A DNA stretch of 64,000 nucleotides from Synergistota bacterium (lineage in GTDB: Bacteria; Synergistota; GBS-1): positions 20,459 to 84,458 of the forward strand of contig JANXBX010000001.1 of assembly GCA_025060595.1 (NCBI GenBank). The letters are read 5' to 3'. Below are positions 14,659-33,218 of this stretch, one piece after another. Below the pieces are notes generated by a model, which worked only from the letters and a program-made list of their open reading frames with translations, had not been told where the DNA came from and did not search any database. The translations under genes and the position numbers were made by a program. Position 1 is the stretch's first letter; every line of letters begins with the position of its first letter.

Positions 14659-14683
14659 AGCCTATGAGAAGGGAGGGATATCC

Positions 14684-15133
14684 CTGAAGAGAATACTCCT
14701 TGGTGTGGGTAATGAACTTCTAGGGGACGATGGTGTAGGCCCTTGGATAGCTAAAAGAATAAATGGAATAAGAGGATGGATAGGGTTAGATGTGGGAACA
14801 GCTCCTGAGAACTTTACTTCCCTCATAAGAAGAGAAAAGCCCTCTCTTCTTGTAATAATCGATGCCACAGAAATGAATTTACTACCTGGAGAAATAAGAA
14901 TGATACCATTAGAGAAAATCCCAAAGTTAACGTACTTTTCAACCCATACACTATCTCTCTCTTTTCTAATAGAAAGCTTAAAAGGTGATGTCAAAAATAT
15001 CCTTTTTATAGGAGTGCAACCCAAGGCTATAGCCTTGGGTTGCACATTATCAGAAGAAGTATTAACTTCAGCTAAAAGGCTTCTTAACTTACTTATATCT
15101 AACAAATTCCTTGAAGAACTCACTTCACTATGA
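14684..15133 (+). CDS. hycI: [NiFe]-hydrogenase maturation endopeptidase (HycI/HybD family)
   Basis: Motif (K)RILLGVGNELLGDDGVG. The conserved N-terminus lies upstream of the first GTG (14705). AGGGAGGG Shine-Dalgarno sits 6 nt before a CTG at 14684. The antisense ORF 14662-15123 is spurious. Confidence 0.7.
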   Translation: MKRILLGVGNELLGDDGVGPWIAKRINGIRGWIGLDVGTAPENFTSLIRREKPSLLVIIDATEMNLLPGEIRMIPLEKIPKLTYFSTHTLSLSFLIESLKGDVKNILFIGVQPKAIALGCTLSEEVLTSAKRLLNLLISNKFLEELTSL

Positions 15134-15521
15134 GAGAATCTGAATATTTATTGTAATCAGCTAATAAAAACTCCGGACTCATGCTTAGACACTTTACTGG
15201 ACAAATATCATTACACTGCGAGCAAAAAGTGCATCTAGCAACATATATTTTTATCTTTTTCTCTGAGGGAAGAAACTCTATAGCACCTGCAGGACAAACC
15301 CTTATACACTGCCTACAACCTATACACTTATCTCTATCGTAAGATATCTTACCTCTAAAGCCTGGCGGAGTCTCTATAGGCGGAATAAGTTTAATTTCTC
15401 CACTTTTAACGGCCTCTAAGAACTCTAAAACCGAATCAGGAGCATACTTTGCAGGAAAAAGATTCGTCTCCGGTCCTCCAAAGAGCTGTTTGAAAAGCTC
15501 AAGAATCATTGGGGTAGCCAT
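15120..15521 (-). CDS. Mbh subunit N-like 2x[4Fe-4S] ferredoxin subunit (NuoI/HycF-like)
   Basis: Two CxxCxxCxxxCP motifs (CIGCRQCIRVCP and CTFCSQCNDICP). Confidence 0.8.
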   Translation of the reverse strand: MATPMILELFKQLFGGPETNLFPAKYAPDSVLEFLEAVKSGEIKLIPPIETPPGFRGKISYDRDKCIGCRQCIRVCPAGAIEFLPSEKKIKIYVARCTFCSQCNDICPVKCLSMSPEFLLADYNKYSDSLIVK

Positions 15522-15539
15522 TCTATAATTGCACCTCCT

Positions 15540-16526
15540 TTAAACTAACTTGTCACAAACCATCAGCAACAAACCAACCATGCTTGTTAAAAGCAAGGGA
15601 AACCAATATAGAGATGCTATCTGGTCAACCTTTAGTCTGGCAAACGCAACCCTAACCAAGGTTACAGAAAAAGTAAGTAAAACTAAAACCTTAATCCAGA
15701 AAAAGAGAAAATCCAAAATATAAGCACCCATTCCTGAGATTCCTAAAATAGAAGAGAGGTTCCATGGAAAAAACAAGTTAACAATTAAAGCGGTCATTCC
15801 TATAGTTTTAACACCATCAGCTATATAAAATAGAGCGTAATTCTTACCAGAGTACTCAACCATCACTCCTTCAGCTATCTCAGTTTCAGCTTCAGCAATA
15901 TCAAATGGAATCTTCCCAAGCTCTGCTGGAGTAACAACAAGTATAGCTATTAGTATCAAAAGAGCGCCAAACACACCTAAAACTCCCAAATTAGACCAAA
16001 TTGGTTTAAGTACATAAGTATATAGTGAAAAGGAAGGGAGATCCGGAAAGGTTTTCGAATAATACCAAGCTAAAGCTATAATAGCAGTAGCTAATGGGAA
16101 TTCATAACTCATCAAAAGAACCATTTCTCTTTGGGCTCCTACTGTAGCAAAGGGAGATCCCGATGCAAAGCCACCAGCAACGATTGCTATAGCAGCAACT
16201 GTAAAAATGTATATAATTAAAATTATATCTCCTCTATCTCCCAAAAGCGGTGGTAAGCTTCCCATCGGTTGATAGAAGAAAAGGCTAATCGAGGCAAGCA
16301 AGGCTAACCAAGGAGCTCCGTTAAATATCCAAGGGACAGCATTTTCTGGAACGATGTTTTCCTTTTGTAAAAGCTTTATAACATCATAGAAGGGCTGAAT
16401 TATAGGCGGTCCAAATCTAGCCTGCAACCTAGCAGCTATTTTCCTATCTATACCTTTGTAAAGGAGCCCCACAAACATAACAAAAATAGAAAGAAAAATG
16501 GTAAGAAGAATCTTTAAGGCTAACAT
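15540..16526 (-). CDS. Mbh subunit M-like membrane subunit (NuoH/HycD family)
   Basis: 328-aa polytopic membrane protein; NuoH-like. Confidence 0.8.
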   Translation of the reverse strand: MLALKILLTIFLSIFVMFVGLLYKGIDRKIAARLQARFGPPIIQPFYDVIKLLQKENIVPENAVPWIFNGAPWLALLASISLFFYQPMGSLPPLLGDRGDIILIIYIFTVAAIAIVAGGFASGSPFATVGAQREMVLLMSYEFPLATAIIALAWYYSKTFPDLPSFSLYTYVLKPIWSNLGVLGVFGALLILIAILVVTPAELGKIPFDIAEAETEIAEGVMVEYSGKNYALFYIADGVKTIGMTALIVNLFFPWNLSSILGISGMGAYILDFLFFWIKVLVLLTFSVTLVRVAFARLKVDQIASLYWFPLLLTSMVGLLLMVCDKLV

Positions 16527-17755
16527 TTTTTCCTCATCCTCCTTGTTTTTTCAACGCTCATCTTATGCAACTCTTCATGAGTCAGTATCTCTTTTCTACC
16601 GGAAGGATAAACAACCGTAACTCTATTGAGACAAGACATACAGGGATCAGTTGAAGCCACTATTATAGGAATATCAGCCACTTCAGCATCTTTAAACATC
16701 GGAACCCACGGTAGCAAGTTGTTATACGTCGGGGCCCTTATTTTCCAAACCGCTAGATTTTCACTACCAGCGACTATCTTAACATAGTGAACATCTTCAC
16801 CTCTTGGTCCTTCGTGCCTACCTACTCCTTCCCCTTCTCCTTTCTTTATGAGATTAAGAAGCTTAACAAGATTCTTTTCATAAACTATGTCTCCTTCAGG
16901 CATCATGGTTAACGCTTTATCTATAAGATCTATAGACTGATCTATCTCAAGAAGACGAACCACAGTTTTATCGTAAACATCTCCTACAATCTCACCTGTA
17001 TATATGTCTGGAGTTATAGCTTTAACACCAATATCTGCATAAGCAATATAAGGCTGATCTTGACGAATATCCTTGGGCACGCCTGAAGCCCTCAAAGTTG
17101 GTCCTACAGCACAAAGAGAAAGAGCGTCTTCCTTACTAAGTATACCTACATTTCTTGTCCTCATCATGAAAGTAGGATCCTCAAGAAGTAAGACCTTTAT
17201 TCTCTCCGAAAGAGTCCTATAGTAATCCAGCGATTTCCATATTTCACGACGGAGCTCCTCATTTATGTCCCTTCTAACGCCCCCTATTTGAACTATAGCA
17301 TAGTTAACCCTATTCCCAGTGATTTTTTCCAACAGATCCATAACGTTCTCCCTGATCTTCCACAATAACATAAACGCAGAATCAAATCCGACTTCATGCG
17401 CTGCAACGCCAGCCCACAATATATGAGAGTGAATTCTCTCAAGCTCAGCCACAATCAATCTTATATACTGAGCTCTCGGGGGAACCTCTATATTAAGAGC
17501 TTTCTCAACAGCAAAAGCCAAAGCCAAAGCATGCGTAACGGAACATATACCACAGATTCGCTCGGAAATATAAAGGCACTGTATAGGATTCCTTCTTGTT
17601 CCTATCCACTCTATACCACGATGAGCGTGTCCAGCGTATATCTTTACGTCTTTAACTCTTTCCCCCTCTATTTCAAAATGAAACTCTATAGGCTCTTTTA
17701 GGGCAGGATGAATCGGCCCTACTGGAACACTATACCCATAGCTTACTTTTCCCAT
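16520..17755 (-). CDS. Membrane-bound [NiFe] hydrogenase large (catalytic) subunit, Mbh/Ech group 4 (NuoD-like)
   Basis: N-terminal RICGICSVTH and C-terminal DPCMSCLNR Ni-Fe ligand pairs are both retained; NuoD-like core. Confidence 0.9.
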   Translation of the reverse strand: MGKVSYGYSVPVGPIHPALKEPIEFHFEIEGERVKDVKIYAGHAHRGIEWIGTRRNPIQCLYISERICGICSVTHALALAFAVEKALNIEVPPRAQYIRLIVAELERIHSHILWAGVAAHEVGFDSAFMLLWKIRENVMDLLEKITGNRVNYAIVQIGGVRRDINEELRREIWKSLDYYRTLSERIKVLLLEDPTFMMRTRNVGILSKEDALSLCAVGPTLRASGVPKDIRQDQPYIAYADIGVKAITPDIYTGEIVGDVYDKTVVRLLEIDQSIDLIDKALTMMPEGDIVYEKNLVKLLNLIKKGEGEGVGRHEGPRGEDVHYVKIVAGSENLAVWKIRAPTYNNLLPWVPMFKDAEVADIPIIVASTDPCMSCLNRVTVVYPSGRKEILTHEELHKMSVEKTRRMRKKC

Positions 17756-17769
17756 ACTTTATAGTCACC

Positions 17770-18291
17770 TCACTCGTTAACCTTTCTAATCAAACTTTGA
17801 GGTCCTTTTTCATCCTTTCTCCATGGATAAATCCCTTCAGGAAAATCATCAGCAAGAAAAACATGTTTTCTTTCCGGAAGGTTCTCATACACAACTCCTA
17901 TCATTTCTTCCTTCTCCTGCTCTGTTATCAAAGCACCTGGAATAAGATGACTTATAGATGGTAATCTAGGATCGCTTTTAGGAACCTTAACCTTAACATT
18001 TATTTGGAGCTCCCTGCTAAACTCTCCCCCATATATAGCAAAATGATATATAACTTGAATATCCTCTCCAATATCCTCAGCAGAAGCAACCATAGAATGA
18101 GGATACTCATCTAGCTCTTTAAGTATTGATACAAACCTCGGTAAAGCGAATGGCTTAATTTCTAACCATATTTCCTTATTTTCCAATTTTTTTACTCCAG
18201 CATTCCAGGTTTTTATTTCACCATTTATAAAATCTTCCCCTAGTCTTTCCTTAACAAGGGAGATTATCTCCTTCGCTTCAAGAATTTTCAT
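17770..18291 (-). CDS. Mbh subunit K-like (NuoC-like)
   Basis: 173 aa, NuoC/HycE-N-terminal-like. Sits between the small and large subunits as in group 4 hydrogenases. Confidence 0.75.
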   Translation of the reverse strand: MKILEAKEIISLVKERLGEDFINGEIKTWNAGVKKLENKEIWLEIKPFALPRFVSILKELDEYPHSMVASAEDIGEDIQVIYHFAIYGGEFSRELQINVKVKVPKSDPRLPSISHLIPGALITEQEKEEMIGVVYENLPERKHVFLADDFPEGIYPWRKDEKGPQSLIRKVNE

Positions 18292-18293
18292 CT

Positions 18294-18737
18294 CTAAGCT
18301 GCCACCTCCTCACCCCTACGTAGCTTCTCAAGCTTTACCCATGCCTGAACAACACCATAAACTATAGCCTCAGGACGTGGTGGACAACCAGGAACATACA
18401 CATCAACGGGTATTATTCTATCTATAGGACCCCATATATTATATGACTCGTAAAACACGCCACCGGTAGAACCACATCCTCCAACAACCATAACAACTTT
18501 GGGATCAGGTATCTGCTCATAAATTCTCTTCAACTTATCAGCCATTTTATGAGTTACGGGACCTGTAACAACTAAAACATCAGCATGACGAGGTGAACCG
18601 ACAAGCCTTATACCAAATCTCTCAGGATCATGACGAGGCATCAAAGCCGCCAGTATCTCTATATCACAGCCATTACAGGAGCCGCTATTAAAGTGGAATA
18701 CCCAAAGAGATTTATGGAAATACTCATTTATCATCAT
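18294..18737 (-). CDS. Group 4 [NiFe] hydrogenase small subunit (NuoB-like, Mbh subunit J-like)
   Basis: Motifs CNGCDIE, GSPRHADVLVVTGPV, GGCGSTGG and VPGCPPRP (proximal [4Fe-4S] ligands). Confidence 0.9.
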   Translation of the reverse strand: MMINEYFHKSLWVFHFNSGSCNGCDIEILAALMPRHDPERFGIRLVGSPRHADVLVVTGPVTHKMADKLKRIYEQIPDPKVVMVVGGCGSTGGVFYESYNIWGPIDRIIPVDVYVPGCPPRPEAIVYGVVQAWVKLEKLRRGEEVAA

Positions 18738-18747
18738 TCAACCCTCC

Positions 18748-19083
18748 CTAAACAAGTAATATTACAAGACCAATTATCATCAACATACCAACAAGCCAAC
18801 CTACATAATCAGAAACATCACCTGTATGCATTTCTATAAGAGGATCATAATAACCCTTTAAAGCCTCAACGAATCCCCAATATATGTTACTTGCTCTTAC
18901 GTGAAGCTCACCCTTTTCAGGAGTAGGATTACCGCTTAAAAAGGGCTTTACCTGCTCTGTTCCTTTTTTGTAATCGCTTCTTCCCTTGCTCCATATCCAA
19001 TAAACCAAGAGAGAGGCCAAAATCATACTCACAAGCCAAACTATAGGATCCCAAAAACCCTGTCCTGTATATATAAGAGTCAT
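18748..19083 (-). CDS. Mbh subunit I-like small membrane protein
   Basis: 111 aa, 2 TM, positionally equivalent to MbhI. Confidence 0.55.
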   Translation of the reverse strand: MTLIYTGQGFWDPIVWLVSMILASLLVYWIWSKGRSDYKKGTEQVKPFLSGNPTPEKGELHVRASNIYWGFVEALKGYYDPLIEMHTGDVSDYVGWLVGMLMIIGLVILLV

Positions 19084-19085
19084 TA

Positions 19086-20645
19086 TTACATCCCTCCCAA
19101 TATCTTAGATACATATGTTGTCTGATCTACCAACGCTTTAGCAGCAGGATCAACAATCGCCTTAACTATAAGCTCGGGGAAAAGCCCAAAGAATACAACC
19201 ACAAAAGCGAGAATTCCCATACCCACAAGCATGCTTGAAGGAACCTCCTTTAACTCCTTATATTCTGGTAATTGAGGTCCAAGAAAAGCGCTCTGGAAAA
19301 TTTTAACGAAAGAAGCAAGAGTTAAGACGCTAACAATCATAGCCATTATCGAAAGTATAGGATTAAATTTATAGACTGACTCGTATATCATGAGCTTGGA
19401 GGCAAAACCATTAAAGGGTGGCAAACCCGCTATAGCCGCAGCTCCAATGATAAAATAAACAGTAGTCCATGGCATATTATGAGCTAAACCCCCAAGCTTG
19501 TTTAAATCCCTCGTACCAGCTCTATAAAAAACAGCACCTGCTGTTAGAAAAAGCAATCCCTTATACATAGCGTGATTTATAATGTGAAATATTCCGCCCT
19601 TCATAGCCATAAGCCCATAATCCTTAAGCTCCATAGGATTGCCGAGAACAGCCAAACCAACACCAACTCCTAAAAGCATGTAACCTGTCTGGGAGATAGC
19701 ATGAAAAGCCATAAGCCTTTTTATCTCCTTCTGAACAAGGGCCATAGTAACACCTATAAACATGGATAAAACTCCAAATATTATAACTATCCAACCAACT
19801 GTAAGCGTGGACATCTTGATCCCAAATAGACTAAAGCAAGTTCTAAACAGACCATACAAACTTGCCTGACTAACGCTCACTAAAACAGCAGTAACCGAAG
19901 CGGGAGCCTCAGCATAAGCATCAGGTAACCACATATGAAGCGGAACAGCACCACACTTTAAAGCAAGGGAAACTACAAGCAAAATTAAAGCAACCTTATC
20001 GGCCCAAGAAAACTCCATCTTTTTAGCGATAGCAGCAAAATTAAGAGCATCATACTTACCATAAAGAAAACCAACTGCAACAAGTACAAACAATGCCGCC
20101 AAGCTACTTACAATCATATATTTTATAGCTGCCTCTATAGATTCTGCTTTGTAATATCTAAAACCTACCAAGGCTACAGAAGCTATAGAAGAGATCTCAA
20201 GGAAAACGAAGAAGTTAAATATATCACCAGTTAGCTCCATACCAAGCATCCCAACAAACATTAAGAGAAACAGAACATAATATTTATCCCTTCCGGTTTC
20301 TCTGCTAGTGTAAGCCATCGAGTAAATAGCACCAGCAAGCGCAGCTATGCTTCCTGAAAGAGCCATAAAGGCGCTCATCCCATCAACCTCAAATATAATT
20401 CTTATAGGGAACTTCATACCTGAGGGGAGTACTAAAGAAGGTAAAGCAGCACCAAATACATAAACTTGAGGCCCTAAAGCTGCAACCCTTCTCATAAGAA
20501 GAATCATCCCGATAGTAGAGAAAACCAAGGAAGCTATAGCCACACCATCTTGAATATATCTATTCCCAAAGACTTTATTAATTAACGGGATTGCAAAGGC
20601 AGCAAAAAGAGGAATAGCTAACACCAAAATAGGTAGATGCTCCAT
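19086..20645 (-). CDS. Mrp/Mnh antiporter subunit D-like (NuoL/M/N family), Mbh subunit H-like
   Basis: 519 aa, 14+ TM, NuoL/MnhD-type proton-pumping fold. Confidence 0.85.
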   Translation of the reverse strand: MEHLPILVLAIPLFAAFAIPLINKVFGNRYIQDGVAIASLVFSTIGMILLMRRVAALGPQVYVFGAALPSLVLPSGMKFPIRIIFEVDGMSAFMALSGSIAALAGAIYSMAYTSRETGRDKYYVLFLLMFVGMLGMELTGDIFNFFVFLEISSIASVALVGFRYYKAESIEAAIKYMIVSSLAALFVLVAVGFLYGKYDALNFAAIAKKMEFSWADKVALILLVVSLALKCGAVPLHMWLPDAYAEAPASVTAVLVSVSQASLYGLFRTCFSLFGIKMSTLTVGWIVIIFGVLSMFIGVTMALVQKEIKRLMAFHAISQTGYMLLGVGVGLAVLGNPMELKDYGLMAMKGGIFHIINHAMYKGLLFLTAGAVFYRAGTRDLNKLGGLAHNMPWTTVYFIIGAAAIAGLPPFNGFASKLMIYESVYKFNPILSIMAMIVSVLTLASFVKIFQSAFLGPQLPEYKELKEVPSSMLVGMGILAFVVVFFGLFPELIVKAIVDPAAKALVDQTTYVSKILGGM

Positions 20646-20651
20646 CTTCCA

Positions 20652-20996
20652 TCACCCTTTCAATTTTCTTAATTCCTTAACATCCAAGGTTCCATAATGC
20701 TTATAGGCCATAACAATTAAGCTCAATAACATCGCAGTTGTAGCAAGACCGATGACGATAGCGGTTAATGTTAGAGCCTGAGGAGTAGGAAGAACCATCT
20801 TTTTTCCAGCAGGCGCCATTGTGTATATAGGAGCAACTGCTCCCTTAACATACCCAAGAGTTATAAGAAAAAGGTTTACCGCCGCCTCCACTATGGATAA
20901 ACCTATAGCTATTTTAATCAAGTTTCTGTTAAACAATATTGCGTAAAGACCTAAGGCTAACATTATACCAACAACAACGAAGGGCATATACTTCAC
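20652..20996 (-). CDS. MnhC-like (NuoK-like) membrane subunit, Mbh subunit G-like
   Basis: 114 aa, 3 TM. Confidence 0.65.
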   Translation of the reverse strand: MKYMPFVVVGIMLALGLYAILFNRNLIKIAIGLSIVEAAVNLFLITLGYVKGAVAPIYTMAPAGKKMVLPTPQALTLTAIVIGLATTAMLLSLIVMAYKHYGTLDVKELRKLKG

Positions 20997-21484
20997 CTTT
21001 TATGCACCTCGCTTTCCTCTTTATTAAATGGTTTCAAGTATGCACCAAGAAACATAAAAAATAGAATCATACTTATACCACCAAAAACCTCAAGTCCAAC
21101 AGCCATATTCATCGGAGGAAGAGTCCCAGCAGTATTCAAATCGCCATCATTTATCCCTAAAGGAACTGGGTTTCCAAAAACTCCTCCAGAGTTAGCTATA
21201 AAGTTATAGAAAAAGGTAGCCCCTATACCTAAGAAAGCTATAGATATAAATAGTATTAGCCCCCCACTTTCTGCAACAGAGAAGAAGGAATCCTTATATT
21301 TCCTAAGAAAATCCTCCTTAGAGAAAGCTACTAAAAAAAGAGCTGTTGATGAGGCTATGACTGCACCTCCCTGGAAACCTCCTCCAGGTGTTAGATGTCC
21401 ATGAATAACAACGTAAAGTCCAAAAACTATGATAGCCCAAAAAGTTAAAGCTGTTATAGTCTTAACTATCTTAGACATGCTCAT
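20993..21484 (-). CDS. MnhB-like membrane subunit, Mbh subunit F-like
   Basis: 163 aa, membrane protein, overlapping starts and stops. Confidence 0.6.
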
Positions 21485-21750
21485 TTTCTCACCACTCCCC
21501 TAAAGGTAGCAGCCACCCCAATAACCGCTGTAAAAAGAACTGTAGCTTCTCCCAAGGTATCAAAACCACGGTAATCAAAAACTATTGATGTAACAACGTT
21601 ATTAGCAGCACACTCTTTCTGAGCATTTTGAATAAAGTAATCATCCATGTCACTTTGAAGCGGCTCCCCAAAGGGGTGAATGGTTGTCAAACCCCAAATT
21701 AATATAAGAGAGAAAAATAAAAAGCTAACCCATTTCAAGGCATTTCCCAT
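21481..21750 (-). CDS. Mbh subunit E-like small membrane protein
   Basis: 89 aa, single N-terminal TM helix. Confidence 0.5.
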
Positions 21751-21753
21751 TTT

Positions 21754-21996
21754 CTAATCCCTCCTAACTCCTCTTAAGGCAAAGATAAAAATCGCAGTAG
21801 TAAGGCCAGCTCCAATACCAGCTTCAGCTATCGCAACATCCGGAGCATGAAGAAGATAAAATTCTAAGGAAAGCACTAAGCTCATAGCAGATAGAGCTAT
21901 AACTGAAGCAAGTAGATTTCTAAGAAAAACAGCAAGATAAGCCGCAATAACCAAAATTATCAACGTAAAGAAGTGAGCCCAATATTCTATACCCAT
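21754..21996 (-). CDS. Mbh subunit D-like small membrane protein
   Basis: 80 aa, 2 TM. Confidence 0.5.
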   Translation of the reverse strand: MGIEYWAHFFTLIILVIAAYLAVFLRNLLASVIALSAMSLVLSLEFYLLHAPDVAIAEAGIGAGLTTAIFIFALRGVRRD

Positions 21997-21999
21997 CTT

Positions 22000-22356
22000 T
22001 CACCACTTCCCTTCTTTCTCCGCAAGCTTATCAACTACGGCCCTCTTAGGCATGACACCACTTCTATGAGCCGCCCTTGCTATAGCATGAGCTCCCGTAG
22101 GGTTAGTTAAAAGCAAAGCTATAAGCGCAAGTATAGCGTGAATAGCAAGAACACAAAATCTTGCTTCACCTGTACTAATCCATTTACTAAATCCGTAGAT
22201 TATTACCCCAAGAGAGGTAAATATAGAACCAAAAGTTGTAGCTTTAGTAGCACCATGCAAACGAGTGTAAACATCCGGAAACCTATAAAGAGCTATAGCA
22301 CCGAGACCATTAAAAGTAATCCCTACTATCAAACACAGTATAATGAGCCCCGACAT
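22000..22356 (-). CDS. MnhG-like subunit, Mbh subunit C-like
   Basis: 118 aa, 3 TM plus a charged C-terminal tail. Confidence 0.6.
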   Translation of the reverse strand: MSGLIILCLIVGITFNGLGAIALYRFPDVYTRLHGATKATTFGSIFTSLGVIIYGFSKWISTGEARFCVLAIHAILALIALLLTNPTGAHAIARAAHRSGVMPKRAVVDKLAEKEGKW

Positions 22357-22358
22357 AT

Positions 22359-22664
22359 CTAAATCCCCCTTTCTAAGTAACGAGCTATAAACAAAGTCGC
22401 TATGAAAGAAAGAAGAGCATAAACTATAGCTATATCCACGTAAATAACAGAGTCAAAAGCAGCTCCAAAAACTATCATTGCAGCAACAACATAAGTATTA
22501 ACGGTATCTAAACCTACAACCCTATCTGGAACAGTAGGTCCCAATGCAGATCTCCCTATAGCCAAGAAACTAAATATAACTAAAAACACACCTGTTATCA
22601 TAAACCATACGCTCAAATCCATCATTCTATTATCCTCCTTGCCCATTGGGGAAAATCTCCACAA
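22359..22664 (-). CDS. MnhF-like subunit, Mbh subunit B-like
   Basis: 101 aa, 3 TM. Confidence 0.6.
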   Translation of the reverse strand: MWRFSPMGKEDNRMMDLSVWFMITGVFLVIFSFLAIGRSALGPTVPDRVVGLDTVNTYVVAAMIVFGAAFDSVIYVDIAIVYALLSFIATLFIARYLERGI

Positions 22665-23128
22665 ATCTCTTGAGGTTCTGGTTCAAGATTTTTAACGTCG
22701 ATCCAGTGAACATAAAGTTCGTTTTCATTCTCATCCACATCTACACTTAAGGTACCAGGTGTTAACGTTATAGAATTAGCTAAAAAAGTTAAAGCCATGT
22801 CTTTTCTAAGCCCTGTTTTGATCTTAACTATACCCGGATTTATATTGCCTGTAAAAACTCTAATTGCCACATCTATATTAGCCTTAGCCATAGCTATAAA
22901 GAATGGGACAAATAAATAGTACAAAAAGAGCACCCACCTATAAGGGTTTAAAAGAGTAGCAGGAATATATTCTCCAAAAACCTTACCTCCAGCCAAACCA
23001 GCCACAAACGCAACTGGGATACCGATCACGAGTTCACCCAAACTCCACAAACCAATATCTCCACTCCCAATCGTTAGAACCAGATAAAGTAGATAAGATA
23101 AAATTGTGACGGCTATATAAGATCCCAC
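22622..23128 (-). CDS. MnhE-like subunit, Mbh subunit A-like
   Basis: 168 aa, first gene of the 14-gene block. GTG start with GGAGGG Shine-Dalgarno. Confidence 0.6.
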   Translation of the reverse strand: MGSYIAVTILSYLLYLVLTIGSGDIGLWSLGELVIGIPVAFVAGLAGGKVFGEYIPATLLNPYRWVLFLYYLFVPFFIAMAKANIDVAIRVFTGNINPGIVKIKTGLRKDMALTFLANSITLTPGTLSVDVDENENELYVHWIDVKNLEPEPQEICGDFPQWARRIIE

Positions 23129-23215
23129 TTAGACCATCCCTCCTTCCAAGGAAGCTTCCGAAGCTTTATTTTATCACATTTTCTCGAAAAGAGAAAAAGA
23201 AATTTGCTTTAAAAG

Positions 23216-24232: not shown

Positions 24233-24946
24233 ATGATTGAAGAAAAAAAGATTAATTTCAAAAAAAGGTTCATCGATCTTAAAGAGGAAGAAGAACAAGC
24301 ATTAATGGAAGCAAGTAGCTTTTTTGATAAGAGAGTTTCAGAATTAAGCGAAAAGCTCTTTTCCCACCTATCTCGCCTAGGAGAAAAAAGCCATTTTAAG
24401 CTGAAAGAAGACTGGAGGGAAATAATAAATGAGTATCTTAAAAGTCTCTTTAAAGATCCTGTAGACGATGCTTACCTTGATAAGAGAAGCTCCCTTGGAG
24501 AAAAAATTTATAATAAGGGTATAGCAATAGAAGGCTTCATAGGCATTTATAACCCAATAATTAAAGCCATACTTGAAACAGCTTTTGAAGTATATAGAGA
24601 AGAAAAAGAAAAAATAATTCTCCTAATAGCTTCTATCTTTAAGAGAATTAACCTTGATATCCAATTAATCGTAGAAGAATATATGAATTTGATAGGCAAG
24701 GGAATAGCTGAAGCAAGCGAGGATCTTAAAAATATAGTTAAAACCATATATAAGATCGCAGGACAGACAAAGTTAATAGCCTTAAACGCAGCAATTGAGG
24801 CTGCTCGAGCAGGAACATCAGGAAAAACCTTCACCGTTGTTGCCCAGGAGATAAGTAAATTAGCAGCTTCCTCAGCAAAGGCAGCTGAAGAGGCTGACGA
24901 AATGATAAGAAAGCACTTAGAGAGCTTTGTTAAAGGTTGGGAGTAA
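24233..24946 (+). CDS. Globin-coupled-sensor-like protein: sensor-globin domain fused to only the conserved tip segment of an MCP signalling domain
   Basis: The C-terminus [51 protein letters not shown] is the highly conserved MCP core. The N-terminal ~160 aa resembles the HemAT-type sensor globin (..[13 protein letters not shown]..). Only 237 aa in total. Confidence 0.55.
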
Positions 24947-25725: not shown

Positions 25726-26658
25726 CTAGACAGTTTCCCCACACATTTTAAGAACGAAGTTCCATTCCCTATCTACATGCTTCTGTATTTCATCAATAAG
25801 ATGTCTTTTTTCAGGAACAAATAGGTGACGGAACCTTCCCTGAATTTTCAGGAATTCTTCGATAGGTTTTTTCTCCTTAGGTTTGTAAGAAAGCTTCCAC
25901 TCGTCATTGATAATTTCAAACACAGGCCAGAAGCAAGTGTCAACAGCAAGCTTACAGAGTTTAATCATATCTGCAGGATCTACCCTCCAGAACCTTACGC
26001 AAGGAGCAAGGACGTTTATAAAGGCAGGTCCCGGTGTCTCGATAGCTTTCCTTACCTTATTAACCAGATCTAGAGGGTTATGTAATGTAGTTTGAGCAAC
26101 ATAAGGTATATGATGACCAGCAACTATAGCAGTCAGATCCTTTCTCCACTGTGTTTTACCAGGTATAACTTTTCCAACAGGTGCAGTAGTTGTATCAGCA
26201 CACATCGGAGTTCCTCCGGATCTCTGAGCCCCTGTATTCATATAACCCTCATTGTTATAGCATATGTATAGGAAATCATGTCCTCTCTCAAGGGCTCCAG
26301 AAAGCGACTGAAGTCCTATATCGTAGGTTCCACCATCACCGCCAAAAGCCACAAACTTCACATCTTTGCTTATCTTACCCTTCTTTTTTAGAGCCCTATA
26401 GGCAGCTTCTACTCCAGATATCGTAGCAGCAGCATTCTCGAAAGCGCTATGAATCCAGGAAACTCTCCAAGCAGTATAAGGGTAAATAGTTGTAGAAACC
26501 TCAAGACAACCCGTAGCACAAGAAACCACAACAGGCTCATTAATAGCGAGCATGGTTAGTCTGGCCGTTAAAGCTGCTCCACAACCAGGACACAATCTAT
26601 GTCCATAAACGAACTTTTCTTCCCTTTTAAGAAGGTCTCTAACAGTTAAAGGCATCAA
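25726..26658 (-). CDS. porB: Pyruvate/2-oxoacid:ferredoxin oxidoreductase beta subunit (TPP-binding)
   Basis: Motifs CPGCG.., GDGG.YDIGLQ (TPP-binding) and CYNNEGYMNTG. Confidence 0.9.
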   Translation of the reverse strand: MMPLTVRDLLKREEKFVYGHRLCPGCGAALTARLTMLAINEPVVVSCATGCLEVSTTIYPYTAWRVSWIHSAFENAAATISGVEAAYRALKKKGKISKDVKFVAFGGDGGTYDIGLQSLSGALERGHDFLYICYNNEGYMNTGAQRSGGTPMCADTTTAPVGKVIPGKTQWRKDLTAIVAGHHIPYVAQTTLHNPLDLVNKVRKAIETPGPAFINVLAPCVRFWRVDPADMIKLCKLAVDTCFWPVFEIINDEWKLSYKPKEKKPIEEFLKIQGRFRHLFVPEKRHLIDEIQKHVDREWNFVLKMCGETV

Positions 26659-26669
26659 AGCACACCTCC

Positions 26670-27836
26670 TTATTCCCTAACCCCGAGATACTTCTCTTCC
26701 TTGGATATATTACCATTCATCAAATCCTCATAAACGCTTCTTATAAGAGATGGAGGAGTATCTCTTCCTCCAAGACCATAGATATAAGATGCTAAAACAG
26801 GTTTCGCCTTTACATCATAAAGTGCAGACTTTATTTCACAGAAGAGAGGAGCTTCTGCACCTACAGAGTAAGCCCTATCTAAAACAGCCACAGCCTTCTT
26901 ACCTTCTAGAAGACGAGATATTTCTTCTTTGGGGAACGGACGATAAAGTCTTATCTTAAGTAGACCAACCTTTTTACCTTGAGCCCTTAATTCCTTAACA
27001 ACATGCTTTGTAGTTCCAGCTGTGGAAGACATAACAACTATTACATATTCAGCATCATCCATGTAAAACCCCTCAACTTTAGGATATTTTCTACCTGTAA
27101 TTTTAGATAGCTCTTCAGCTACCTCCTCGTAAGCCTTCGGAACATGCTTCATTGCCTCAAACTGTTGACGTTTATGCTCAAAGTAGTAATCAAAAAGATC
27201 AAGAGCTCCATAAGTCTTCGGATTATCAGTATCAAGTAAAGGATTCCAAGGCTTAAACTCCCCTATAAACTTCTTAACCACCTCATCATCTAATATCTCA
27301 ACAGGTTCAACTCCATGAGAGGTTATAAACCCGTCTTGGCAAACCATAACAGGTAAACGAACATCTTCACGCTCTGCAAGTCTTATAGCCAAGATGGTAT
27401 GATCGTAAACCTCTTGAGCTGTTTCACTATAGATCTGGATCCAACCAGAATCCCTCTCCGCCATTGTATCAGCATGATCACAATGTATGTTTATAGGAGC
27501 AGAAAGAGCTCTATTAACCACACCCATAACAATCGGTAGCCTTAAGCCAGATGCTATATAAACTACCTCGTGCATCAAAGCCAAACCCTGAGCAGATGTA
27601 GCAGTCATAACCCTTGCACCTGCAGCAGAGGCTCCAACGCAAGCCGACATAGCAGAGTGCTCACTCTCAGCAGTGACAAGCTCGGTATCTACAAGACCGT
27701 CGGCAACAAATTCAGCAAAGGTCATCATTATCTCCGTCTGAGGAGTTATGGGATAAGCAGCAACCACATCAGGGTTAATTTGTCTCATAGCCTCAGCAAA
27801 GGCTGCATTACCAGTCAAAGGTATTTTCTTTTTCAT
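26670..27836 (-). CDS. porA: Pyruvate/2-oxoacid:ferredoxin oxidoreductase alpha subunit
   Basis: 388 aa; N-terminus LTGNAAFAEAMRQINPDVVAAYPITPQTEIM is typical of PorA. Confidence 0.9.
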   Translation of the reverse strand: MKKKIPLTGNAAFAEAMRQINPDVVAAYPITPQTEIMMTFAEFVADGLVDTELVTAESEHSAMSACVGASAAGARVMTATSAQGLALMHEVVYIASGLRLPIVMGVVNRALSAPINIHCDHADTMAERDSGWIQIYSETAQEVYDHTILAIRLAEREDVRLPVMVCQDGFITSHGVEPVEILDDEVVKKFIGEFKPWNPLLDTDNPKTYGALDLFDYYFEHKRQQFEAMKHVPKAYEEVAEELSKITGRKYPKVEGFYMDDAEYVIVVMSSTAGTTKHVVKELRAQGKKVGLLKIRLYRPFPKEEISRLLEGKKAVAVLDRAYSVGAEAPLFCEIKSALYDVKAKPVLASYIYGLGGRDTPPSLIRSVYEDLMNGNISKEEKYLGVRE

Positions 27837-28135
27837 TTCTTCTCACCTTCCTCAAAAAGTGACTCCGGTTTCATCTCTATAGCACTTTTTGGACAAATAG
27901 CAGCACAGACTCCACAACCTTTACAATAATCATAATTTATACCACTTACCTTATTGTCCCTTACAAGAATAGAGCCATCCGGACAGTGAAGCCAACACAT
28001 AAAACAATTTATGCATTTATCCTTATTCCATACAGGTCTTATACTTCTCCACGTCCCAGTTTTATACTTAATGCTGTTTCCCGCTTCAAGTATTACACCC
28101 CCAGGCGGGAGTTCCTTCCAACCCTTAAGACTCAT
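27833..28135 (-). CDS. porD: POR delta subunit (2x[4Fe-4S] ferredoxin)
   Basis: Motifs CINCFMCWLHCP and CKGCGVCAAICP. Confidence 0.85.
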   Translation of the reverse strand: MSLKGWKELPPGGVILEAGNSIKYKTGTWRSIRPVWNKDKCINCFMCWLHCPDGSILVRDNKVSGINYDYCKGCGVCAAICPKSAIEMKPESLFEEGEKK

Positions 28136-28713
28136 TCTCCCTGCACCTCCTCATAGCCACGGCGCATGGCCCTTAGATTCGCTTCCACTCTCTCAGGAGT
28201 AAGTCTCCCCTCAAACTTACTTCTAAAATGTTCCTCAAAGCTTCTAAGAGGAACTTCCCCTATTATCTTAGCAAGAGCCCCAAGTATCGGCGTATTAGGG
28301 AAATTAACTTTCATTTCCTCAAGAGCAATCTTAGTAGCATCAACAACATAAACTTTCTGAGACTTCAAGCCTAATTTTCTCTTCACATCAGCAGGAGTCA
28401 ATGTGGTATTTACAAGCAGTACGCCGTCTTCTTTTAAACCCTCAGCTACATTAACAGCTGTAAGCAATGTAGGATCAATTACCACAACAATATCAGGATT
28501 CTCTACCTGACAGTGAAGTAAAATTTCCACCTTACTTAACCTATCAAAGGCTTTCATAGGAGCTCCCGACCTCTCCGCGCCATACTCAGGAAAGGCCTGA
28601 ATGTGATATCCCTGCTCAAAAAACACCTCAGCTAAAATCTGGGCCCCTGTTTTAGCCCCTTGGCCTCCTCTACCATGCCAACGTACTTCAATGAGCCTCT
28701 CCAAGACCTTCAC
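28132..28713 (-). CDS. porG: POR gamma subunit
   Basis: 193 aa with the N-terminal GRGGQGAKTGAQILAE motif. Confidence 0.85.
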   Translation of the reverse strand: MKVLERLIEVRWHGRGGQGAKTGAQILAEVFFEQGYHIQAFPEYGAERSGAPMKAFDRLSKVEILLHCQVENPDIVVVIDPTLLTAVNVAEGLKEDGVLLVNTTLTPADVKRKLGLKSQKVYVVDATKIALEEMKVNFPNTPILGALAKIIGEVPLRSFEEHFRSKFEGRLTPERVEANLRAMRRGYEEVQGE

Positions 28714-29452: not shown

Positions 29453-30754
29453 TCAGTTTTTTCTTAAAACAGGTAGCAATTTATGACCTTCTGGAATAAT
29501 ATAAGTAGAGGGGTTAGGGCCAAGCAAACTCTTAGCTTCCTCTATTCCTTTCCTCAAGCTTCTTACCGGTTCCATACCCATTTTTTTAACCTCATCTTCA
29601 GGCAAATTAGAGATAAGATAAACCTTAAACTTTTCCGCTATCAGCGCCATATGAAAAGCCATATGCCCACCTATAGTATAATTTTCTCTTAAAGCCATCT
29701 CTCTTTCCTTACTATCTCGATAATTAACAAGGGTTTGATAAAAATCCTCATTACCTATGCCCTCTCTACATTCAGATAAAAGTATTATGACCCCTCCCTC
29801 TTTAGTAGCTTTTTCTGCGTTATAAAGTGTTTTATAAGTTTGATAAAGATTTATATCTTCAGGATAACCGCCACAAGAGATTATCGTAAGTTCAGCAAGC
29901 TCTTCTATTTCAACACTACAATACTCATTATAGAGTCTTGCGCCTTCCTCATGAGCAGCCACATAATCTCCTGCAACAACATGAGCTATCTTTCTTTCTG
30001 GATTCACAATAGTGTTAATAAGAAAAGCCGGCTTTATAAAGCTTGCTACCTCAAGAGCATCTTCGCTTACTCTGTTACCACGCATTACACCTGAACAAAC
30101 TGATGGATCAAGACCTTTACCAGGTTCAGGATGAAGAGCAAGCCCGTGATTTTTCATTATAGAGTCCCTTGAGGAAACACCAGGCATTATCGATTTTTTC
30201 CCTCCACCAAAACCATATAAGAAGTGATGAACTATTCCACCAGTTAAAATGACCTTGTCAGCTTCAAGAAGTCTCCTGTTTATCTCCACAGGAGTTCCAT
30301 AGCTTGTCTTTCCAAGATAAACAACTTCCTTTTTGTTTCGAGCACGATGGTTATATATTCTTCCTTTAAGAAATGCGTAAGCTTCCTTCCCGAGAATTTT
30401 TTCAAACTCTTCCTCAGTATGATCCCGATGATCACCATTAGCACAAATAGCAAATATATCTTCATCTATAACACCAGCGTTCTTAAGTTCCTTCAAAATA
30501 AACGGCATAAAAACATGATGTCTAACCCAAAGTCTCGTCATATCGCTAAAGAGAATGCATACCTTTTCTCCCTTCTTAACTATTTCCCTTAAAGGAGCAG
30601 AGTTTATAGGTTTAGTAAGGGCCTCTATAACTGGTTTTTCTTCGCTCTGATGTTTTGGCATTTCCTTGGGCTCTAGGATCCCTATTATATTATCCAACTC
30701 ATAATCGAACTCTATAAAACCATTTCCAAATGCCAAGCCAAAAGGTTTTTTCAT
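29453..30754 (-). CDS. larA: Lactate racemase LarA family protein (Ni-pincer-nucleotide-dependent; DUF2088 plus LarA C-terminal domain)
   Basis: 433 aa. The architecture and its position at the end of an lct-like operon match LarA/LctF. Confidence 0.7.
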   Translation of the reverse strand: MKKPFGLAFGNGFIEFDYELDNIIGILEPKEMPKHQSEEKPVIEALTKPINSAPLREIVKKGEKVCILFSDMTRLWVRHHVFMPFILKELKNAGVIDEDIFAICANGDHRDHTEEEFEKILGKEAYAFLKGRIYNHRARNKKEVVYLGKTSYGTPVEINRRLLEADKVILTGGIVHHFLYGFGGGKKSIMPGVSSRDSIMKNHGLALHPEPGKGLDPSVCSGVMRGNRVSEDALEVASFIKPAFLINTIVNPERKIAHVVAGDYVAAHEEGARLYNEYCSVEIEELAELTIISCGGYPEDINLYQTYKTLYNAEKATKEGGVIILLSECREGIGNEDFYQTLVNYRDSKEREMALRENYTIGGHMAFHMALIAEKFKVYLISNLPEDEVKKMGMEPVRSLRKGIEEAKSLLGPNPSTYIIPEGHKLLPVLRKN

Positions 30755-30773
30755 TTTTTTTTCGCCTCGCTTT

Positions 30774-32192
30774 TTAAAATATCTTACCAGGATTCATTAT
30801 ATTATTAGGATCAAAAACTCTTTTCATCTTCTTCATCAATTCTACTTCTTTTCTTTTGGTTTCATTTAAGACCCTTTTCTTAAGAAGACCTATCCCATGC
30901 TCGCCGCTTACAGCTCCACCAAGCTCTGCTGCTTTTAAAGCTAACTTATCAAGAATCTCCTCAGAGATATATCTCCATTCCTCCAAAGATACATGCGATG
31001 GTTTTAAAGGAGCTGGGTGGAGGTTACCATCAGCTACATGAGCTGCAACTGGAATTTTAACTTTATACTCATTTGACATCTCACTCAAAAAGGACATCAT
31101 ATCAGGAATACTTGATGTAGGAAGAACCACATCCCCTGTGGAAACATAAGGATCAACTGCCTTAAGAGCCTCAAGCCATGTTCTTCTAACCTTCCAAATG
31201 CTTTCAGAGGCGCTTCTATTATCAGCTACAAAAACATCAATTGCTCCTTTAGACAATAATGCTTTTCCCACTTTTTCATAAATATTTTCCAATTCCGTTC
31301 TATTTTTTCCTTCCAGCTGAACTATTAAGAAAGCCTCAGCCTCGCCTTGAAACGGAAAACTCGTGTTGTTATACTTAGCACTAAGCTCAATAGAAACCTT
31401 ATCTATAAACTCTAAAGCTGATGGAAGTTCTTTACTTTCCATTAGGATCAAAGGCACGCTATCTACAGCATCCTCTACCTTCTTAAAAGGAATCAATAAA
31501 TCTACCGTTTTGCCCGGTAATGGTATCAAGTTAAGGTAAATTTTAGAAAACACCGCTAAGGTCCCTTCAGAACCTACTAACAGCTTCACAAAGTTATAAC
31601 CGCTTGAATCCTTTCTTCTTTTACCTCCAAATATTACAACCTCCCCATTAGGAAATACAGCTTCTATTCCTAAAACATGGTGTCCCGTACTTCCATATTT
31701 TATTACCTTACTCCCTCCCGCATTTGTCGCCACATTTCCTCCTATAAAACTTGTCTCAACGCTCATAGGATAACCTGCATAATATAATCCCTCCTCCATA
31801 ACTCTCCTACACAAGTCGTTTGTTACAACCCCTGGTTCAACCACAGCAACAAGGTTCTTCTTATCCACCTCTATAACTCTATTCATCCTTTCCAAGGAAA
31901 GAACTATTCCACCAAATAGAGGGATGCAACCTCCTGAAAGTCCACTTCCCGCGCCTCTTGGAGTAACAGGTATCTTTTCCTCATTTGCCAATTTCATTAT
32001 CTCTGAAATCTGCTCAACCTTTTCAGGTTTAACAACTACATCAGGCATACGAGCATAGTATTTGAAAGCCGATTCATCATGAGAGTAGGCCTCAAGAGCA
32101 TCTTTATCTTCGTAAATAACCCCTCTTTCTCCAACTATCCTTATCAACTCCCTAACAAAGGAGGGAGTAACCTTCCCAAATTCCTCAATCAT
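30774..32192 (-). CDS. FAD-binding (PCMH-type) D-lactate/glycolate oxidase family dehydrogenase (GlcD-like), LctD-like
   Basis: FAD_binding_4 region PRGAGSGLSGG, and GGSISGEHGIG-like segment GGAVSGEHGIGLLK. Confidence 0.85.
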   Translation of the reverse strand: MIEEFGKVTPSFVRELIRIVGERGVIYEDKDALEAYSHDESAFKYYARMPDVVVKPEKVEQISEIMKLANEEKIPVTPRGAGSGLSGGCIPLFGGIVLSLERMNRVIEVDKKNLVAVVEPGVVTNDLCRRVMEEGLYYAGYPMSVETSFIGGNVATNAGGSKVIKYGSTGHHVLGIEAVFPNGEVVIFGGKRRKDSSGYNFVKLLVGSEGTLAVFSKIYLNLIPLPGKTVDLLIPFKKVEDAVDSVPLILMESKELPSALEFIDKVSIELSAKYNNTSFPFQGEAEAFLIVQLEGKNRTELENIYEKVGKALLSKGAIDVFVADNRSASESIWKVRRTWLEALKAVDPYVSTGDVVLPTSSIPDMMSFLSEMSNEYKVKIPVAAHVADGNLHPAPLKPSHVSLEEWRYISEEILDKLALKAAELGGAVSGEHGIGLLKKRVLNETKRKEVELMKKMKRVFDPNNIMNPGKIF

Positions 32193-32193
32193 A

Positions 32194-33210
32194 CTATCTT
32201 CCCTCCTTATAACTTTTAAGCCTCTCTATTAAAAGAGGAACCACTTCAAACAAGTCTCCTACTATTCCAAAATCACAAACCTTAAATATGTTAGCCTCAG
32301 GATCATTATTTATAGCAACGATCGTCTCAGAGGAGGACATACCAGCAATATGTTGAACAGCACCAGAGATCCCTATAGCCATATAAAGCCTTGGGCTAAC
32401 CGTCTTCCCACTTAAACCTACCTGATGAGGATAGGATACCCATCCCATATCAACAGCAGATCTCGAAGCTCCTAAAGCCCCTCCCAAGAGCCTAGCAAGC
32501 TCACGAACCATCCCAAAGTTCTTCTCGCCTTTAAGTCCTTTACCACCAGATACAACTACATCAGCCTCCTGAATGGGAGCCTCCAACGAATTATCTTTAA
32601 TAAATCTAACAAATCTTACTTTAGACTCATAAAGGCTTTCAGGATACTCCTTTAATATAATTTCCCCAGAACGAGATGTATTCCTTGACAGTGGTTTCCT
32701 CGATCTAGGTCGAACGGTGGCCATTTGCGGTCTATGATTGGGAGTTTTAATAGTAGCCATTACATTACCCCCAATAGCTGGTCTCGTTTGAAGAAGAAGC
32801 CCCGTCTCAGGTTCTATATCGAGTCCAGTACAATCAGCTGTAAGGCCAGTCCTTATTCTTGCAGCAAGTATAGGCATAACAGTCCTGCCAACTGTAGTTG
32901 CCGAAGCAATAAATATCTCTGGGTTAAACTCTTTTACCAGTTCCTCAAGAACACGGGCATAAGCATCAGGCTTAAAACGCTCAAGGAGAGGATGATCCAC
33001 AAGGTAAACTTTATCAGCCCCTCTATATATTAACTCCCTTACTTTATCCTTTAGCCCACAACCTATAATAACACTTGAAAGCTTAACACCAAGCTTGTCT
33101 GCAAGCTCTCTACCCCAATTTAAAAGCTCATAAGAAACAGAGCTTATTTCGCCCTCCCTTTGCTCTCCAAGAGTCCATACCTCCCTAAGTATTCCAGATT
33201 CGTTCATCAA
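32194..33210 (-). CDS. etfA: Electron transfer flavoprotein alpha subunit
   Basis: C-terminal FAD-binding region AIGISGAVQHIAGM. Confidence 0.9.
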   Translation of the reverse strand: MMNESGILREVWTLGEQREGEISSVSYELLNWGRELADKLGVKLSSVIIGCGLKDKVRELIYRGADKVYLVDHPLLERFKPDAYARVLEELVKEFNPEIFIASATTVGRTVMPILAARIRTGLTADCTGLDIEPETGLLLQTRPAIGGNVMATIKTPNHRPQMATVRPRSRKPLSRNTSRSGEIILKEYPESLYESKVRFVRFIKDNSLEAPIQEADVVVSGGKGLKGEKNFGMVRELARLLGGALGASRSAVDMGWVSYPHQVGLSGKTVSPRLYMAIGISGAVQHIAGMSSSETIVAINNDPEANIFKVCDFGIVGDLFEVVPLLIERLKSYKEGR

Positions 33211-33218
33211 AATCCCTC

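Follow-up and report, generated by a model that had tools for sequence, protein, structure and literature searches.

Does a run of 14 consecutive open reading frames (ORFs) on the reverse strand of a Synergistota contig (positions 15120–23128 of a 64,000-nt stretch of JANXBX010000001.1, assembly GCA_025060595.1) encode a working [NiFe] hydrogenase Mbh of the kind known from Pyrococcus furiosus, and should its presence in a bacterium be a surprise? A first-pass annotation had read the run as a Pyrococcus-type mbhA–N gene set in a bacterial genome. Our analysis leads us to answer that the region very probably carries a functional mbhABCDEFGHIJKLMN operon together with hycI in a fermentative Synergistota bacterium, the product of which would be a ferredoxin-driven, H2-evolving and ion-pumping Mbh, and that such an operon in a bacterium is no surprise. 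In this text, the window means the whole 64,000-nt stretch. Genes were taken from the program-listed maximal ORFs and from the gene calls deposited for GCA_026414785.1 (263-kb contig JAOAII010000002.1), a near-identical sister assembly; between positions 17755 and 28132 of the window the coordinates of the two are offset by 3 nt, and the MurJ protein stands under a different accession. The reference enzyme was P. furiosus Mbh (PDB 6CFW).

Architecture of the operon and its host

The ORF listing gives 14 genes, running from mbhA to mbhN, with sizes of 168/101/118/80/89/163/114/519/111/147/173/411/328/133 amino acids (aa), which agrees exactly with the first-pass annotation, and in the deposited gene calls neighboring genes overlap by 4–7 nt or leave no more than 18 nt between them. 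Two of these sizes are those of maximal ORFs: MbhB is more likely an 88-aa protein (start at 22625) and MbhG a 111-aa protein (start at 20987), since both the deposited gene calls and the P. furiosus chain lengths favor these starts. The first-pass annotation had also stated that the sizes mirror those of the P. furiosus subunits, and the chain lengths in PDB (A, 167; B, 84; C, 124; D, 96; E, 99; F, 148; G, 117; H, 510; I, 115; J, 167; K, 173; L, 380 after processing; M, 321; N, 139 aa) make it clear that this correspondence is real. In a PDB search, every subunit (14/14) matched a 6CFW chain, with E-values from 1e-13 to 1e-39 for A, B, C, D, E, F, G, K and N, and a 6CFW chain was the top match for 12 of the 14. 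For MbhG and the stretch formed by MbhE and MbhF, chains of the sulfane-sulfur reductase MBS (also called Mbx; PDB 6U8Y) scored equally or slightly better.

Pfam searches found the Mrp-like module MbhA–G and the single antiporter-like subunit MbhH (families MNHE, MrpF, PhaG, MbhD, MbhE, MnhB, Oxidored_q2 and Proton_antipo_M for A to H), followed for J to N by Oxidored_q6, Complex1_30kDa, Complex1_49kDa together with NiFeSe_Hases (both in MbhL), NADHdh and Fer4 families. MbhI is the sole ORF among the 14 with no Pfam match, and its single PDB match is 6cfw_I (E=2.2e-9). The features are collected in Table 1. Taken together, the region reads as an intact 14-gene operon for the [NiFe] hydrogenase Mbh, and it shares with the P. 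furiosus enzyme (HydDB group 4d) the 14 subunits, their gene order and similar sizes, the Ni-Fe and Fe-S ligands, MbhI, the Mrp-like module and the single antiporter-like subunit. The HydDB subgroup label (4d) of the window enzyme is inferred, groups 4b, 4c and 4e–4i being without named references in our tree (see below).

Table 1. Positions in the window, strand and supporting matches of the mbh genes, hycI and associated features
Feature	Position	Strand	Evidence or remark
mbhA, MrpE-like membrane subunit, 168 aa	22622..23128	-	PF01899 E=2.4e-35; 6cfw_A E=1.1e-36; GTG start after AAGGAGG
mbhB, MrpF-like, 88 aa (maximal ORF 101 aa, to 22664)	22359..22625	-	PF04066; 6cfw_B E=5e-21
mbhC, MrpG-like, 118 aa	22000..22356	-	PF03334; 6cfw_C E=2.7e-39
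mbhD, 80 aa	21754..21996	-	PF13244 MbhD; 6cfw_D E=1.6e-17
mbhE, 89 aa	21481..21750	-	PF20501 MbhE; 6cfw_E E=3.9e-13
mbhF, MrpB-like, 163 aa	20993..21484	-	PF04039; 6cfw_F E=4.3e-25
mbhG, MrpC/NuoK-like, 111 aa (maximal ORF 114 aa, to 20996)	20652..20987	-	PF00420; 6cfw_G 90.8 bits; 6u8y_G 105 bits
mbhH, antiporter-like, 519 aa	19086..20645	-	6cfw_H 378 bits
mbhI, Mbh-specific small membrane subunit, 111 aa	18748..19083	-	NCBIfam NF053600 equivalog 137.8 bits (cut-off 95)
mbhJ, hydrogenase small subunit, 147 aa	18294..18737	-	PF01058; 6cfw_J 205 bits
mbhK, NuoC-like, 173 aa	17770..18291	-	PF00329; 6cfw_K E=1.6e-21
mbhL, [NiFe] large subunit, 411 aa	16520..17755	-	PF00346 and PF00374; 6cfw_L 375 bits
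mbhM, NuoH-like membrane anchor, 328 aa	15540..16526	-	PF00146; 6cfw_M 203 bits
mbhN, 2x[4Fe-4S] ferredoxin-like, 133 aa	15120..15521	-	Fer4 families; NF006221 155.6 bits (cut-off 124); 6cfw_N E=3.7e-27
hycI, large-subunit C-terminal endopeptidase	14684..15133	+	TIGR00142 equivalog 121.1 bits (cut-off 119.1)
Putative extended -10 promoter element TGTGATAAAAT	23168..23178	-	Read from sequence, ~40 nt before mbhA start
2-oxoacid:ferredoxin oxidoreductase, four subunits (gamma, delta, alpha, beta)	25726..28713	-	Pfam POR, Fer4, POR_N/PFOR_II, TPP_enzyme_C; context, outside operon

The host is bacterial, since the window carries MurJ, GatCAB, the NAD-dependent DNA ligase LigA, EF-G and CdaA, and the proteins of the window have been deposited identically as proteins of a "Synergistota bacterium" metagenome-assembled genome (MAG); on this point the first-pass annotation and the NCBI label agree. 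The GC content of 0.38–0.40 across the mbh cluster is the same as that of the remaining window. Three related MAG assemblies, whose MbhL is 83–91% identical, have the same arrangement of mbhA–N, hycI and murJ with a differing gene upstream of mbhA. In pairwise comparisons with two related MAGs sharing the mbh-hycI-murJ arrangement, for which synonymous sites are saturated, the ratio of nonsynonymous to synonymous substitution rates (dN/dS) was 0.02–0.11 for each of the 14 mbh genes wherever an estimate of dS was possible, which puts the whole set under strong purifying selection.

The putative promoter element TGTGATAAAAT is kept in the three related MAG lineages despite their different genes upstream of mbhA (alignment A2). 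Because generic scans gave promoter-like sites at a level not above chance (28 found against 26 expected), it is this three-way conservation on which we propose the element; terminator-like sites were likewise not above chance (8 against 9 expected). In the mbhA leader (23139–23178, reverse strand), the element and the AAGGAGG before the GTG start are conserved in the three MAG lineages, and an AAGCTT-CGG-AAGCTT palindrome is partly so. A possible hairpin AAGCTTCGGAAGCTT in the 5' untranslated region of mbhA shows partial conservation.

Catalytic site, iron-sulfur clusters and maturation

The first-pass annotation had proposed that the large subunit keeps both Ni-Fe cysteine pairs and is of the Mbh type rather than an Mbx-type or complex-I-like derivative, and both statements were borne out. 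The RICGICSV and DPCMSC motifs of the 411-aa MbhL align with the cysteines that serve as Ni-Fe ligands in 6cfw_L, and the four residues (C68, C71, C372 and C375) do not vary across the nine sequences of alignment A1 or across a larger set of 83 aligned group 4 large subunits. MbhL also keeps the proton donor E21, H75, the arginine of the PRGE motif (R318, corresponding to P. furiosus R320) and D370, which corresponds to D372. In the PDB search MbhL scored 375 bits with 6cfw_L; HycE reached 236 bits, Thermus Nqo4 176 and MbsL 125. A phylogeny of the large subunit, which the first-pass annotation had suggested as a check, was made by neighbor-joining with 71 sequences, a HycE root and 100 bootstrap replicates; the window protein and its relatives grouped with P. 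furiosus MbhL in 92 of the 100 replicates, and not with Mbx, Fpo or Nuo. These comparisons support an Mbh-type large subunit rather than one of the Mbx, Nuo or Fpo type.

For the electron path, C21, C24, C88 and C118 of MbhJ, which lie in CNGC, GGC and PGCPP motifs aligned with 6cfw_J, are the ligands expected for the proximal [4Fe-4S] cluster, and MbhN has two CxxCxxCxxxCP motifs (CIGCRQCIRVCP and CTFCSQCNDICP) supplying ligands for two [4Fe-4S] clusters, so that three such clusters are predicted from the ligands, one in MbhJ and two in MbhN. In the membrane anchor MbhM, E142 is the counterpart of P. furiosus E141.

At its C terminus MbhL carries an extension of 33 aa, beginning after R378, the last residue of DPCMSCLNR; this is the context of the cleavage site in HycE (DPCYSCTDR, cut before M), and the solved P. 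furiosus MbhL chain stops at the arginine equivalent to R378. The gene for a HycI-type protease, which the first-pass annotation had noticed as a convergent neighbor, is a hycI equivalog sharing 14 nt with the 3' end of mbhN. With hycI present and the extension cleavable in appearance, MbhL is predicted to be processed by a HycI-type endopeptidase, as the large subunit of P. furiosus is processed at its C terminus.

The annotated start of hycI should probably be corrected. The annotated GTG (14705; 142 aa) cuts off the conserved first beta-strand, and the frame stays open on its 5' side. Seven codons upstream lies CTG 14684, preceded at a distance of 6 nt by a strong Shine-Dalgarno sequence AAGGGAGGG (14669–14677), and a related MAG has TTG at the matching codon. 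From the open frame, the Shine-Dalgarno sequence, the TTG in the relative and the otherwise lost strand, we therefore propose the non-canonical CTG 14684 as the probable start of a 149-aa protein beginning with MKRILLGVGNELLGDDG. The unusual start explains why annotation pipelines give 142 aa here and 86 aa in one related locus (L085) and miss the gene in another (L087), where a spurious ORF on the opposite strand was called instead. All relatives keep an intact hycI frame and conserve the start position and the Shine-Dalgarno sequence.

Proposed function

The mechanism of the reference enzyme has been worked out from its structure and from simulations (PMC8679088, PMC11228991, PMC8165549). 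From this solved homologue, these simulations and the fermentative gene context of the window, we infer which donor supplies the electrons, in which direction the reaction runs and which ion is pumped, and we read the enzyme as an H2-evolving, ion-exporting ferredoxin:H+ oxidoreductase. Reduced ferredoxin would probably be made by the neighboring four-subunit 2-oxoacid:ferredoxin oxidoreductase, a likely source of it, and by similar enzymes. Reduced ferredoxin would hand its electrons to the two [4Fe-4S] clusters of MbhN; from there they would travel by way of the proximal MbhJ cluster to the [NiFe] site in MbhL, at which protons would be reduced to H2. The small drop in free energy would be relayed through MbhM and MbhI to MbhH and the Mrp-like MbhA–G, which may export ions (H+ being exchanged for Na+), and the resulting gradient could drive ATP synthesis. 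The MbhL precursor would be cut by HycI after Arg378, following insertion of nickel. Most of the ion-path residues are conserved, among them, in the Mrp-like module, D29, D35, N38 and D59 of MbhB and E56, H61, D64 and E69 of MbhD.

Distribution and comparison with known systems

We searched one genome per GTDB species with an MbhL alignment, which gave at least 600 matches, and then by tblastn with all 14 proteins; the taxa named here are a sample rather than a census, and the matches listed include neither the source genome nor cultured Thermococcales. Among the matches listed, complete collinear A–N clusters including MbhI occur in the bacterial groups Atribacteria (61%), Caldisericota, Thermotoga, Verrucomicrobiota and Dehalococcoidia and in the archaeal Thermoplasmata, Methanolinea, Methanoregula and one Thermococci MAG, and a convergent hycI is common to many of these clusters. 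The nearest relatives among them are clusters of Atribacteria (JS1/OP9), Caldisericota, Thermotogota, Verrucomicrobiota, Dehalococcoidia, Methanomicrobiales and Thermoplasmatota, whose MbhL is 50–61% identical. They share with the window the A–N order, a lysine-less MbhH motif V-x-x-S/T-Q-A-S-L-Y and often the convergent hycI, and they differ in phylum: outside its own small group of Synergistota-labeled MAGs, in which identity is 83–92%, the window protein is at most 61–64% identical to its counterparts. This large window-type sub-lineage spans bacteria and archaea and is the commonest Mbh-type cluster outside Thermococcales among the matches listed, and sequence comparison places the window cluster in a sister lineage of the Thermococcales enzyme.

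Four loci from MAGs of Thermoplasmatales and Methanobacteriota (L004, L005, L006 and L011) were found with mbhJ, K, L and N, L004 with mbhL only, and no mbhM or mbhA–I was detected within the stretch fetched for each. A split arrangement like this has been published for Thermoprofundales subgroup E (PMC9585477).

Such clusters are well represented in the literature. Mbh A–M has been reported from Atribacteria JS1 (PMC6281690), a bacterial MBH operon from Zhurongbacter, most lineages of whose clade (Zhurongbacter/CCTB) carry MBS clusters, MBH clusters or both (PMC10356935), and Pyrococcus-like mbh operons from Methanomicrobiales (PMC2686161); 14-gene MBH clusters have been surveyed across GenBank (PMC9585477), and [NiFe] group 4d has been defined in HydDB (PMC5037454). 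Because collinear clusters are widespread in bacterial MAGs and already published, the surprise that the first-pass annotation implied in a bacterial Mbh does not hold. The operon of the window is an ordinary member of a known and widespread family and leaves knowledge of that family unchanged. A literature search by assembly and contig accession returned nothing published on this MAG, and an oil-reservoir paper has deposited a related fragment, "bacterium 42_11", with no discussion of it.

The description "Pyrococcus-type" was apt for the architecture and less so for the details: the cluster belongs to the sister lineage, MbhL is 47% and MbhH about 42% identical to the P. furiosus subunits, and residues of the central MbhH axis and residues at or next to the proposed MbhG ion site are altered, as described below. 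The host is moreover a bacterium, in which SurR-type regulation is not expected. As for other known systems, MBS has a homologous Mrp-like module, against which MbhG and MbhE/F score similarly, but most of its four Ni-Fe cysteines are gone, its site being only a vestige (PMC8165549), and it has two antiporter-like subunits (MbsH and MbsH') and reduces polysulfide; the window keeps all four cysteines and has one antiporter-like subunit. Formate hydrogenlyase Hyc of Escherichia coli (7Z0S; group 4a) has homologous large, small, NuoH-like and ferredoxin-like subunits and HycI-type processing; unlike the window, it has neither the Mrp-like module nor MbhI, its HycE is fused (~580 aa), and it is fed with electrons by the formate dehydrogenase bound to it. 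The presence of MbhA–G and MbhI separates the window cluster from Hyc (4a) and Ech (4e) alike, which have six to eight subunits and no Mrp module. The Mrp Na+/H+ antiporter (PDB 6Z16, 7QRU and 7D3U) is also among the closest known systems.

Evidence against the assignment and alternative interpretations

Several observations weigh against an unqualified transfer of the Pyrococcus model to the window, and we gather them here. We found no biochemical study of the window enzyme or of any member of its sub-lineage. The link to a ferredoxin source is loose: the oxidoreductase genes lie 2.6 kb upstream of mbh on the same strand, and two to three unrelated genes separate them from it. As the first-pass annotation had stated, hyp genes are missing from the window, with no Hyp-family Pfam domain among the called genes, which cover nearly the whole window. 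The remaining points concern the membrane subunits. MbhH keeps E150, K230, the lysine of transmembrane helix 12 (TM12) and the residues aligned with P. furiosus H346, H350 and K354, so that six of the seven key charged residues of P. furiosus (E143, K225, H346, H350, K354 and K409) are retained; the seventh, the central TM8 lysine (P. furiosus K256), falls at a 2-residue deletion where the window has S259-Q260 (VSVSQASLYG in TM8 vs. GLVIKIGGIYA in P. furiosus), and Y244 replaces a conserved histidine (P. furiosus H239). MbhG has E37, N41 and L47 vs. D37, H41 and E47 in P. furiosus, where D37 and H41 belong to a proposed Na+ site. The ion pair between Glu49 of MbhI and Lys40 of MbhL described for P. 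furiosus (PMC11228991) is Asn/Tyr in the window. From these changes in MbhH, MbhG and the Glu49-Lys40 pair, it follows that the coupling ion and the stoichiometry may differ from those of the Pyrococcus model.

The MbhH changes are constant within the sub-lineage: absence of the TM8 lysine and Tyr in place of His239 were found in all 19 members compared (the window and 18 loci among L002–L026), most of which have Gln260, Ser262 and Asp216. Among full-length 50%-identity cluster representatives of MbhH, 11 of the 13 nearest are without the lysine, as are 21 of the 94 more distant; it is present in those closest to P. furiosus MbhH, and most other group 4 hydrogenases keep both the lysine and the histidine. 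The idea that loss of the TM8 lysine is unique to the clade of the window was rejected in view of those 21 distant representatives; comparable losses are seen elsewhere in group 4. In a review of Mrp and MBH, MbhH is presented as a standard antiporter-like subunit that has kept every key residue (PMC7419157), a statement which fails for the window sub-lineage because the TM8 lysine is absent; the full set of key residues is a feature of the reference enzyme and not a formal criterion of the family. The literature consulted makes no mention of the MbhH and MbhG changes of the sub-lineage. We think it unlikely, though worth stating, that the sub-lineage couples H2 evolution to ion transport by a route or stoichiometry other than that of Pyrococcus. 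If the changes were functional in this way, MbhH might contain an uncharged polar or water wire, Na+ might pass through MbhH, or MbhH might take no proton step at all. The pattern in MbhH and MbhG is the one modest lead that reaches beyond this operon: mechanistic models based on the single Pyrococcus structure may not carry over unchanged to most environmental Mbh enzymes.

A slim chance is left for reverse operation, in which an ion gradient would drive H2 oxidation and ferredoxin reduction as suggested for the Mbh-like hydrogenases of Methanomicrobiales. The Methanolinea and Methanoregula clusters fall within the window sub-lineage, Anderson et al. have proposed a non-fermentative role in methanogens (PMC2686161), and group 4 enzymes can in principle run in both directions (PMC5037454). 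The window, in contrast, holds the toolkit of a fermenter that makes reduced ferredoxin (the oxidoreductase, TRAP transporters and genes for the catabolism of amino acids and lactate), and no autotrophic pathway consuming ferredoxin was found in it, which favors H2 evolution.

A metabolic model of Atribacteria paired Mbh with FdhH (PMC6281690), and the Mrp module is common to group 4b enzymes (PMC5037454), so that a formate- or CO-respiring, Mrp-linked hydrogenase of group 4b, which takes electrons from an attached dehydrogenase and not from free ferredoxin, has to be weighed. We hold this to be very improbable: the 10 kb flanking mbh on each side, in the window and in the three related MAG loci, contain no gene for a formate or CO dehydrogenase, the subunit set is exactly A–N with nothing added, and MbhL groups with P. 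furiosus MbhL at the aforementioned bootstrap frequency.

That the cluster is a decaying, unexpressed relic of a transfer from archaea is scarcely credible. The truncation or omission of hycI by annotation pipelines and the lack of nearby hyp genes could be taken in this sense, but all 14 reading frames are intact with dN/dS at or below 0.11 in every gene, the base composition is native, and the frame, start position and Shine-Dalgarno sequence of hycI are kept in the relatives. Finally, we give practically no credence to an Mbx/MBS-like sulfur reductase or other complex-I-like derivative that no longer makes H2, to which the scores of MbhG and the MbhE and MbhF stretch (as good or better against MBS chains, MbhG scoring higher against MbsG than against P. 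furiosus MbhG) and the MBS-like Glu37/Asn41 pair of MbhG might point, since none of the four Ni-Fe cysteines is missing, MbhL reaches 375 bits with Mbh vs. 125 with MbsL, the antiporter-like subunit is one and not two, and a dedicated HycI with a cleavable C-terminal extension makes sense only for a nickel enzyme.

Neighboring genes

Between the oxidoreductase genes and mbh lies a gene for a short globin-coupled sensor (24233–24946, forward strand; 237 aa) with a protoglobin domain and a partial MCP signaling domain, followed by one for a DUF4234 membrane protein. Further away, at about 29453–34573 on the reverse strand, stands a string of genes for a GntR regulator, EtfB, EtfA, a GlcD-like FAD-linked oxidase and LarA, which we take to resemble the electron-confurcating lactate dehydrogenase/Etf cluster for lactate utilization of acetogens. 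At the start of the window (1–918, reverse strand), only the 3' part of eutA is included; just beyond it (L084, 1–6733) stand genes of ethanolamine utilization and of a microcompartment (eutA, eutB, eutC and genes for BMC shell proteins and an aldehyde dehydrogenase).

Biological implications

For annotation, the outcome is a small correction of the hycI start. For the biology of the organism, the operon would add an uncultured Synergistota lineage to the bacteria able to conserve energy from ferredoxin-driven H2 production, which is of use when the metabolism of thermophilic, amino-acid-fermenting or syntrophic communities is reconstructed.

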